The position numbers and the translations under genes were made by a program. The notes beneath the pieces are model-generated. The model was given only the letters and a program-made list of their open reading frames with translations, was not told where the DNA came from and made no database searches. From Curvularia clavata (Eukaryota), in contig CP089277.1 in assembly GCA_023920165.1 (NCBI GenBank), positions 3,968,001-4,032,000 on the forward strand: a stretch of DNA of 64,000 nt, written 5' to 3'. Positions 15,771 to 16,836 of this stretch are shown here, piece after piece (position 1 is the stretch's first letter; every line of letters starts with the position of its first letter).

Positions 15771-16836
15771 ATGACGAACGCACTTGGATCCGTCAACCGC
15801 AGTACGGTGTCAAACCTGTTCGTACGCAAGGGCCAGAGGTCTTACTACGCTTGTGTGTGCTGTCTGAACGCCTTCAGGGATAATGAGCCCGTTACTTTTG
15901 GCAGAGCGGGTTGCGTTATGTTGGACATCGACAATCCTGAGGTAGCTGAGGCTTGGTCTGGCTACAAGGTTGAACCGGAGTCTGGCGGTATGCCTAGGCA
16001 GGTGATGAAGTGTCTTCGCTGCTCTTACATCAACCGTGTCTGTTTTGCGGTAAGTTGCCCTGTTTTGCTCTGATTTGGTCCAATTTGGAGCTAAATGAGT
16101 GGTTAGGTGCCTCCTCCCGACAAGTTCTCCCCCGACTGGGTGAGACTTGGCCAGCTCATTGGGAAGGTTGAGGATGCCTTCCATGCCATTGACAAAGATA
16201 TCCCCGAGGGTGCCAATGAGGCTGAAGTTCGTGCTGAGCGCAGGGAAATGTACGAGGTGGCCGTTACTAGGCTTAGTATGTTCAGCAAGCCTATTGTTGA
16301 GTCACTCAAGAAGTAAGTGATCCAATTTTCCTAAATCTGGCCCAAATTGGACTAATTTGTGTAGGTTTGAGCCTCATGCTACTCATCTGTCTCTTTCCTC
16401 TGGTGCCATCGAGGAGGAAGATGATCCCCGCTCTGGTGTGAAGACTTCTGCCCTTGGCCGCTCCAAGAAGGATGAAGAGGTCAAGAGGAAGGCTCATGAG
16501 ATCGAGGTGGAAACTTTGGTCGAGGCAAGGGTCAAGAAGTCCAAGTATGGCTCTGGTGGGCGCAAGAAGGAGGTTTGTGATCCTTTTCCCCCCTATTTAC
16601 GCCAAATTGCCCCAATTTGGACTAACTTGGTTCTTTAGGTCAAGGTTGCCGAGGATGTCACTGATGAGCTTCAGAAGCGCATCAATGACATTGATGAAGA
16701 GATTTTGCAAAAAATGTCTGAGAAGGAGGGGGCCAAGGGTCAAGCCAAGAGGAAGATCACCAATGACATCAAGAACTTGGAAAAAGCCAAGGCAAGGCTT
16801 AACAAGGAGTACGAGGCCGCAGTTGCCGGTGATTAA
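15771..16836 (+). CDS. Antisense, spliced accessory gene inside the retrotransposon (296 aa; exons 15771-16049, 16107-16312, 16365-16572, 16639-16836); Cys-rich N-terminus, coiled-coil C-terminus
   Basis: Three phase-compatible introns of 57, 52 and 66 nt (GTAAGT..TAG, GTAAGT..ACTAAT..TAG, GTTTGT..ACTAAC..TAG) give one uninterrupted ORF from ATG to TAA. Confidence 0.88.

Follow-up and report, generated by a model that had tools for sequence, protein, structure and literature searches.

Introns of an antisense gene in a fungal Ty3/gypsy retrotransposon read as in-phase arrays of the element's own 10-bp repeat

We have analyzed a 64,000-nucleotide stretch of the Curvularia clavata genome (assembly GCA_023920165.1, contig CP089277.1, positions 3,968,001 to 4,032,000 of the forward strand), referred to here as the window, whose numbering is used throughout. 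The window contains a long terminal repeat (LTR) retrotransposon of 7331 bp on the minus strand (14969–22299, the element), which carries an additional gene on the opposite strand (the accessory gene, 15771–16836) between pol and the 3′ LTR. The three predicted introns of this gene, called introns 1–3 below unless a relative is named, are each an in-phase run of a palindromic 10-bp unit that also occurs throughout the element, and in each of them a well-preserved copy lies directly before the putative branch site. We propose, with a probability of about 0.6, that the introns were carved from an element-wide array of cis-sites.

Branch-site motif and repeat structure of the introns

The features of the accessory gene are as follows.

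15771–16836, plus strand: accessory gene, four exons, 296 residues, between the pol stop (17125) and the 3′ LTR (15177)
15771–16049, plus strand: exon 1, 93 residues, orphan domain with six invariant cysteines (gene model and homologues)
16050–16106, plus strand: intron 1, 57 nt, donor GTAAGT, 3′ end TAG; CCAATTTGG at 16080–16088, spacer AG, CTAAA at 16091
16107–16312, plus strand: exon 2 (gene model)
16313–16364, plus strand: intron 2, 52 nt; CCAAATTGG at 16342–16350, spacer A, CTAAT (ACTAAT at 16351–16356)
16365–16572, plus strand: exon 3 (gene model)
16573–16638, plus strand: intron 3, 66 nt, donor GTTTGT; CCAATTTGG at 16612–16620, spacer A, CTAAC (ACTAAC at 16621–16626)
16639–16836, plus strand: exon 4 with the stop codon, encoding a lysine/glutamate-rich, coiled-coil-like tail (gene model)

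The association between the motif and the branch site is real and non-random. All three introns have GT..AG ends and contain CCAAWTTGG 1–2 nt upstream of CTAA, which conforms to the CTRAY consensus in two of them (CTAAT and CTAAC). Their lengths also agree with the approximately 50–70 nt of fungal spliceosomal introns, in which the branch site lies some 10–30 nt ahead of the 3′ end. Each exact copy is preceded by degenerate ones, namely TTGCTCTGAT and TTGGTCCAAT in intron 1, CTGGCCCAAA in intron 2 and CCAAATTGC (at 16602) in intron 3. Both observations had been made in a first-pass annotation of this DNA, and both are borne out here. When one motif per intron is placed randomly between the 5′ splice hexamer and CTAA, the probability that all three gaps measure 1–2 nt is 3.4e-4. 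The composite pattern TTGG-N-CTRAY occurs only three times in the window, two of these being introns 2 and 3, and branch sites in this genome therefore do not generally show the fusion with the motif.

The motif belongs to a repeat unit of 10 bp, TTGGNCCAAW, in which the palindromes TTGG-N-CCAA and CCAA-W-TTGG are both present. Each intron consists of one in-phase run of 4–6 units extending from the 5′ splice hexamer to the 3′ AG. Accordingly, the introns are self-similar at a lag of 10 (identity 0.497) and of 20 (0.435), compared to a mean of 0.247 at other lags and a lag-10 identity of 0.268 in the exons; none of 2000 shuffles reached the lag-10 value of the intron interiors. Tandem Repeats Finder reports period-10 arrays at 15577–15600, 16055–16077 (in intron 1) and 17107–17145.

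The phase of the branch site was determined in a register set solely from the sequence upstream of it, both in the accessory gene and in L003, a 2189-nt metagenome contig that encodes the homologous protein P0008 and ends before intron 3. In four of the five coding-region introns (introns 2 and 3, and introns 1 and 2 of L003), the first base of CTRA falls on unit position 6, where the unit has CCAA; in intron 1, which contains one additional base, it falls on position 7. The half-site CCAA of the unit second or third from the end thus coincides with the branch site and now reads CTAA (CTGA in L003). The change from CCAA to CTAA is a single CpA-to-TpA transition, the commonest type of change in repeats of this genome. 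What the first-pass annotation described as a motif fused to the branch point is, given the predicted intron boundaries, a succession of two units, the first being the best preserved and the second having its CCAA turned into the putative branch site CTAA. At least one 3′ splice site also appears to be a single change away from the unit (CCAA to CCAG).

The three introns are 58–67% identical in pairwise comparison, a likeness that none of 500 shuffles reached for any of the three pairs. The exons are mutually dissimilar, since the nucleotide scores of exon pairs were reached by 10–130 of 200 shuffles and the protein scores by 28–186 of 300. The likeness of the introns is therefore not a by-product of duplicated modules, and duplication of an exon together with its intron was rejected as their origin.

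The accessory protein and a relative of the element

The 296-residue frame results from removal of the three GT..AG introns, all of which contain in-frame stops; intron 2 additionally shifts the frame. Once spliced, the predicted product can be aligned over its full length, including all three junctions, with P0002, a hypothetical protein of 309 residues annotated in Alternaria gaisen (E 4e-24 with P0002 as the single subject). A search of exon 1 against 1.84 billion protein representatives returned seven matches, six of them credible. P0004 (531 residues) was dropped as a homologue, as it is a low-complexity tandem repeat matched spuriously in nine stretches. The six credible homologues share six invariant cysteines with the spacing C-x2-C-x16-C-x32-C-x2-C-x6-C. 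Five of them are open reading frame calls of about 100 residues that read a few codons into the intron, and all six have C-x-A-V at the end of exon 1, from which we conclude that the position of intron 1 is conserved. A profile search for the exon 1 domain added P0010 only, and word-index searches with exon 1 ("longer" and "near") gave no match. Among the protein-search matches, none is named brtn (the antisense gene of Boty-like elements, see below), the sole named relative being the hypothetical protein of A. gaisen.

The accessory protein matches no Pfam family in searches that extended to E values up to 1 for exon 1 and up to 10 for the nine members of alignment A2, and the coiled-coil-type Pfam matches of exon 4 are weak and all below the cut-offs. 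A sequence search of the PDB gave no match (best E 0.64), Foldseek returned nothing at E ≤ 0.001 with an AlphaFold model that is itself weak (predicted local distance difference test score 63), and the ESM Atlas yielded only unnamed bacterial clusters of low recognition. A Zn2Cys6 (Gal4-type) zinc cluster was considered and rejected, with neither a profile match nor such a chain in the PDB; compared to the Gal4-type spacing C-x2-C-x6-C-x5-12-C-x2-C-x6-8-C, only the second half of the cysteine pattern fits. A DUF3716-like domain also found no match in the Pfam searches. The minus strand over the accessory gene was likewise considered as coding, and its frames match no family. Contigs from four public runs aligned to 14900–17400 show no splice joints, none of the 24 runs listed being recorded as RNA, and one contig, record 29 of X9, a run that may be DNA, passes unspliced through intron 3. 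Upstream of the gene, a perfect palindrome TGACGTCA (15312–15319) and a box CACGTGAC (15410–15417) have counterparts at matching places in L003 (TGACGTAA at 1033–1040 and CATGTGAC at 1210–1217); the palindrome and the box of the element are candidate promoter elements of the accessory gene.

P0008 of L003 is 47% identical to the accessory protein over exon 1 in an ungapped alignment. Four other metagenome contigs found with a degenerate exon-1 pattern (L001, L002, L004 and L005) were rejected as chance matches, two of them having in-frame stops, and L003 alone encodes the domain; the same pattern found no locus in viral contigs and two bacterial chance matches in genome contigs. In L003, the LTR is related to that of the element and has identical termini, the polypurine tract is similar, and the same blocks are conserved ahead of the gene. 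The positions and phase of introns 1 and 2 are identical in the two genes, and the residues flanking both junctions are conserved among the accessory protein, L003 and P0002. The introns of L003 show the same periodicity, with identities of 0.43, 0.49 and 0.44 at lags of 10, 20 and 30 (the lag-10 value reached by none of 2000 shuffles), and CTGA starts at unit position 6 in both.

Intron 1 is 67% identical to its L003 counterpart (reached by none of 500 shuffles), the first 13 nt being the same, whereas the identity of exon 1 amounts to 60% over all positions and to 47% at third codon positions; for intron 2, the identity to L003 is 54% (3 of 500 shuffles). GCTAAAT of intron 1 aligns with GCCAAAT of L003, in which the branch site is the next unit (GCTGAC). 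Repeat half-site and branch site thus interchange at one homologous place. This alignment, together with the in-phase arrays and the placement of CTRA at position 6 in four of five introns, supports the proposal of the first-pass annotation that the introns arose from the repeat unit itself. Its further expectation, that homologous introns keep the motif, holds in part. L003 intron 1 has CCAAATCGG, with one mismatch, one base before CTGAC. In L003 intron 2, CCAAAATGG precedes the branch site by 22 nt, and the 9-mer adjoining the branch site is a remnant with five mismatches, so that phase and periodicity are kept there and the exact motif is not.

Counting copies with at most one mismatch, L003 contains five, compared to 0.59 expected, and none of 200 shuffles reached five. 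All five lie in compartments shared with the element: upstream of the gene, in the putative 5′ untranslated region (UTR) intron, before the ATG, in intron 1 and in intron 2. The copy before the ATG, with one mismatch, starts 33 nt ahead of it (32 nt in the element). The counterpart of the putative 5′ UTR intron described below spans 1317–1497 of L003 (181 nt, donor GTAAGT, CTAAC-AG end), and its branch site reads TTGGGCTAAC, a unit with CCAA changed to CTAA. The intron architecture, as predicted for both DNAs, is older than the split of the element and L003.

Distribution of the repeat and origin of the introns

The motif is not specific to splicing but element-wide. The window contains ten exact copies of CCAAWTTGG, compared to 0.52 expected and a count that none of 100 shuffles reached. 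All ten are inside the element (15155 to 22285), none being found in the 891 nt of accessory exons or in the other 56.7 kb; the central W is oriented one way in seven and the other way in three. Densities of copies with at most one mismatch are given below.

Introns: 22.9 per kb
3′ flank: 10.4 per kb
5′ flank: 6.7 per kb
LTR: 4.8 per kb
gag: 2.4 per kb
pol: 1.3 per kb
Accessory exons: 0 per kb
Rest of the window: 0.23 per kb

The excess within gag and within pol was in each case reached by 1 of 300 codon permutations, and gag contains a cluster at 21268–21310 with an exact copy at 21293. Three units, including an exact CCAATTTGG at 15155, lie at the end of the 3′ LTR next to the internal region (15140–15169); in sense orientation, the LTR units are at the very start of U3, upstream of TATAAA. 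The end of pol, comprising the codons of the chromodomain tail and the stop, is encoded inside a four-unit array (17100–17146). The following features around the accessory gene also carry the repeat.

15503–15678, plus strand: putative 5′ UTR intron, 176 nt, GTAAGT ... CTGAC ... TAG (predicted)
15735–15750, plus strand: motif copy in the 5′ UTR, starting 32 nt before the ATG (motif scan)
16846–16886, 16997–17040 and 17100–17146, plus strand: repeat arrays of the 3′ flank (lag-10 identity 0.39)

The strongest pair of palindromic motifs (15573–15600) lies in the putative 5′ UTR intron. Predicted RNA folds at 15560–15610 and 16840–16900 are clearly better than those of shuffled sequences (z −3.7 each). 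A CCAAT box (the HAP or NF-Y site) was considered as the identity of the motif and is weakened: all ten exact copies in the window have CCAAT on one strand, but only one of the five L003 copies does, the other four reading CCAGT, CCGAT, CCGAT and CCATT.

According to the explanation that we favor, the repeat would be a cis-site of the whole element. Most likely, it would be recognized on the DNA by a dimeric or oligomeric protein, because it is palindromic and free of orientation bias, its phasing equals one helical turn, and copies are present in U3 and around both promoters; alternatively, it might act as hairpins in the genomic RNA. As the accessory gene is antisense, the genomic RNA of the element never loses the introns, and the sites would survive retrotransposition while the accessory mRNA sheds them. 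The accessory protein, with its Cys6 domain and coiled coil, would be the obvious candidate reader of the repeat. The suggestion of the first-pass annotation that introns serve as carriers of cis-sites is plausible, in that the motif is element-wide and the L003 copies are confined to shared compartments.

Several points weigh against this explanation. The consensus of the unit was derived from the same sequences on which it was tested, and the introns of the accessory gene and their splicing are predicted from sequence. The comparison at the DNA level involves one relative and introns 1 and 2, and homologous introns are not independent of each other. The exact motif at the branch site is lost in L003 intron 2. 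CTAAA of intron 1 deviates from the fungal CTRAY consensus; an alternative branch candidate, CTGAT at 16070–16074, lies 32 nt upstream of the 3′ end of this intron, likewise in the CCAA slot of a unit. In the putative 5′ UTR intron, the branch site does not keep the phase (position 5) and is distant from the motif. Searches of Pfam, the PDB and Foldseek matched the accessory protein to no DNA-binding family. Finally, persistent periodicity is no proof of selection, because tandem arrays of 10-bp units can be regenerated through slippage during replication.

The last point leads to an account that we take seriously but consider unlikely, in which the introns are relics. A slippage-prone 10-bp array would once have occupied the interval between pol and the 3′ LTR, the gene would have grown there with repeat-like stretches turning into introns, and the units would now be idle. 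The same anatomy of periodicity, phase and intron likeness fits this account, as do the decay of the units toward the 5′ end of the introns (scores of 6, 7 and 10 in intron 1, and of 6, 6, 8 and 9 in intron 3) and the loss from L003 intron 2. However, all five L003 copies are in shared compartments although the flanks hardly align, and intron 1 is conserved above the third codon positions of exon 1 (67% compared to 47%, element with L003). Nor can a relic array explain the motif excess within the coding sequence of gag and pol. The same element-wide spread bears on a role in splicing, in which the palindrome upstream of the branch site would form an RNA hairpin or a protein site, possibly for the accessory protein itself, and set branch use or intron retention in a self-regulated manner. 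The best-scoring unit does immediately precede the branch-site unit in four of five introns, predicted folds of introns 2 and 3 place the motif in a stem ending right before the branch site, and the introns have the highest motif density of all compartments. Yet the motif is equally characteristic of the LTR, the flanks, gag and pol, with nothing there to splice. The intron folds have z values of −1.8, −1.6, −1.4, −2.5 and −0.3, and in four of five, 10–74 of 200 shuffles fold equally well; comparison of the accessory protein with Pfam families and PDB sequences revealed no domain that would bind RNA or DNA. We regard such control as very unlikely, and for autoregulated splicing, which the first-pass annotation had also raised, we found nothing in favor.

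The gene model itself could be wrong, the region being non-coding repeat DNA and the motif-bearing introns an artifact of picking open frames between repeat blocks. It is true that the model was derived by prediction and that long stop-free frames are also present on the minus strand over the region. These minus-strand frames match no family, though, and the six cysteines are invariant across homologues, the spliced product aligns end to end with the annotated P0002, and the residues flanking junctions 1 and 2 are conserved in three sequences. An error of this kind is highly improbable.

Returning to introns carved from cis-sites, a more specific scenario can be put forward tentatively, though we judge it distinctly unlikely as a whole. 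The element would have turned its own array of protein-binding half-sites, one transition away from a branch site, into spliceosomal introns; the array may have seeded similar introns at three to four places in one gene; and the element's own Cys6/coiled-coil protein would bind the palindromes as a dimer and thereby link the state of the element to the transcription or splicing of its antisense gene. If introns did arise from a half-site array with the element's own protein as its reader, this would be a traceable and still legible birth of introns from a cis-regulatory repeat.

The retrotransposon, its setting and known systems

The element is an intact Ty3/gypsy chromovirus with the following features.

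14964–14968 and 22300–22304: target-site duplication CTCAG, read on both sides of the element
14969–15177, minus strand: 3′ LTR, 209 bp, TG..CA, 100% identical to 22091–22299
15178–15192, minus strand: polypurine tract adjoining the 3′ LTR, sense strand AAGAAGGGAGG..., with a similar tract in L003
17125–20865, minus strand: pol frame, 1246 residues, with protease, reverse transcriptase, RNase H, integrase and chromodomain (Pfam)
20826–22100, minus strand: gag frame, ATG at 22043, with a CCHC zinc knuckle (Pfam zf-CCHC, E 1.8e-08)
22080–22088, minus strand: primer-binding-site position, 9 nt complementary to LTR 22172–22180 (sequence)
22091–22299, minus strand: 5′ LTR, 209 bp, TG..CA, 100% identical to 14969–15177

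The pol frame matches RVT_1 (E 6.8e-38), RT_RNaseH (9.6e-31), Integrase_H2C2 (5.4e-19), Chromo (9.3e-17) and SH3_Tf2-1 (1.2e-13), with rve at 31.8 bits, slightly below its cut-off of 32.6. The chromodomain is located at residues 1182–1231, and the order of the Pfam matches along the frame is that of chromoviruses (protease, reverse transcriptase, RNase H, integrase, chromodomain). The primer-binding-site position, two bases past the 5′ LTR, lacks the tRNA-like TGG. The LTR segment complementary to it lies about 28 nt downstream of TATAAA, and this block is kept in L003. The complementarity suggests that reverse transcription of the element may proceed by self-priming, as in Tf1-type elements.

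The copy is recent and probably active, since its LTRs are identical and its frames open. It is inserted, as the flanking sequences indicate, into one copy of a local repeat. A paralogue of the target without the insertion, an "empty site" at 22947–23261, is located 650 bp away and is 96% identical to 14948–14968 joined to 22300–22598. The DNA around the insertion is AT-rich and appears full of transition mutations. Pieces of 14900–17400 were found at identities of at least 99% in the public runs X8, X9, X10 and X12, which carry four further organism labels, and the same runs contain copies heavily altered by G>A and C>T. These two changes make up most of the differences in the diverged copies (106 of 129 differing places in run X12), which look like products of repeat-induced point mutation. 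From the near-identical and the altered copies, we conclude that the element is widespread, with recent activity in some genomes and mutated copies in others.

The neighbors of the element in the window are genes of filamentous-ascomycete type, including an MFS transporter and those listed here.

5924–6877: LRR protein
12530–14272, minus strand: pogo/Fot1-type DDE transposase, 580 residues, open frame
34685–37121, minus strand: NACHT plus ankyrin (NLR-type) gene
61566–62927: bHLH protein

The transposase frame, an unrelated neighbor of the element, contains three good 10-bp units at 13844–13874.

Antisense extra genes of LTR retrotransposons are known as a class, and an antisense gene can retain introns through retrotransposition. 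Introner-like elements of fungi are families of near-identical introns that multiply across genes. The introns described here resemble them in being mutually similar beyond chance (58–67%) with unrelated exons. They differ in that all three are in one gene of a mobile element and in that the 10-bp unit also fills non-intronic DNA; within the window, exact motif copies are confined to the element. The En/Spm transposon has subterminal arrays of 12-bp binding sites for its TnpA protein. Here, too, a short motif recurs many times and in both orientations, clustered near one end of an element that encodes an extra protein. However, the present element is a retrotransposon whose sites lie inside the introns of the candidate binder's own gene, and the analogy concerns mechanism only.

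The closest layout is that of the Boty-like elements, which have the extra gene brtn in antisense orientation between pol and the 3′ LTR (Zhao et al. 2011, Virology 417:248, as cited in PMC8365987, PMC7264820 and PMC4227169). As in Boty, a chromovirus-type gag (CCHC) and pol (protease, reverse transcriptase, RNase H, integrase, chromodomain) are combined with an opposite-strand gene at this place. The present element differs in its LTR of 209 bp, and the citing passages mention neither repeat-built introns nor a motif at the branch site. Antisense open reading frames between pol and the 3′ LTR have also been described in plant Ty3/gypsy elements, namely Grande of maize, RIRE2 of rice, Retand of Silene and PvRetro13 of Phaseolus (PMC7264820). 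They share the position and orientation of the extra gene but belong to another kingdom, and the passages concerned describe no repeat-built introns (PMC7264820). A literature search for the motif strings found nothing relevant among the 25 papers listed of 798, although the original brtn paper may describe such introns.

The antisense-gene layout is thus already known from Boty and brtn, and the intron architecture is what appears to be new. The introns of the antisense gene are legibly built from the element's own repeat, with a branch site that is a one-letter variant of its half-site. If the repeat works as a cis-site, one sequence would have two readers, one acting on the DNA or genomic RNA of the element and the other being the spliceosome on the opposite-strand transcript; if it is a relic, these would be rare introns whose raw material stays readable. 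As the element is apparently intact and recently active, it offers a usable experimental object that joins the layout of Boty and brtn to this architecture.

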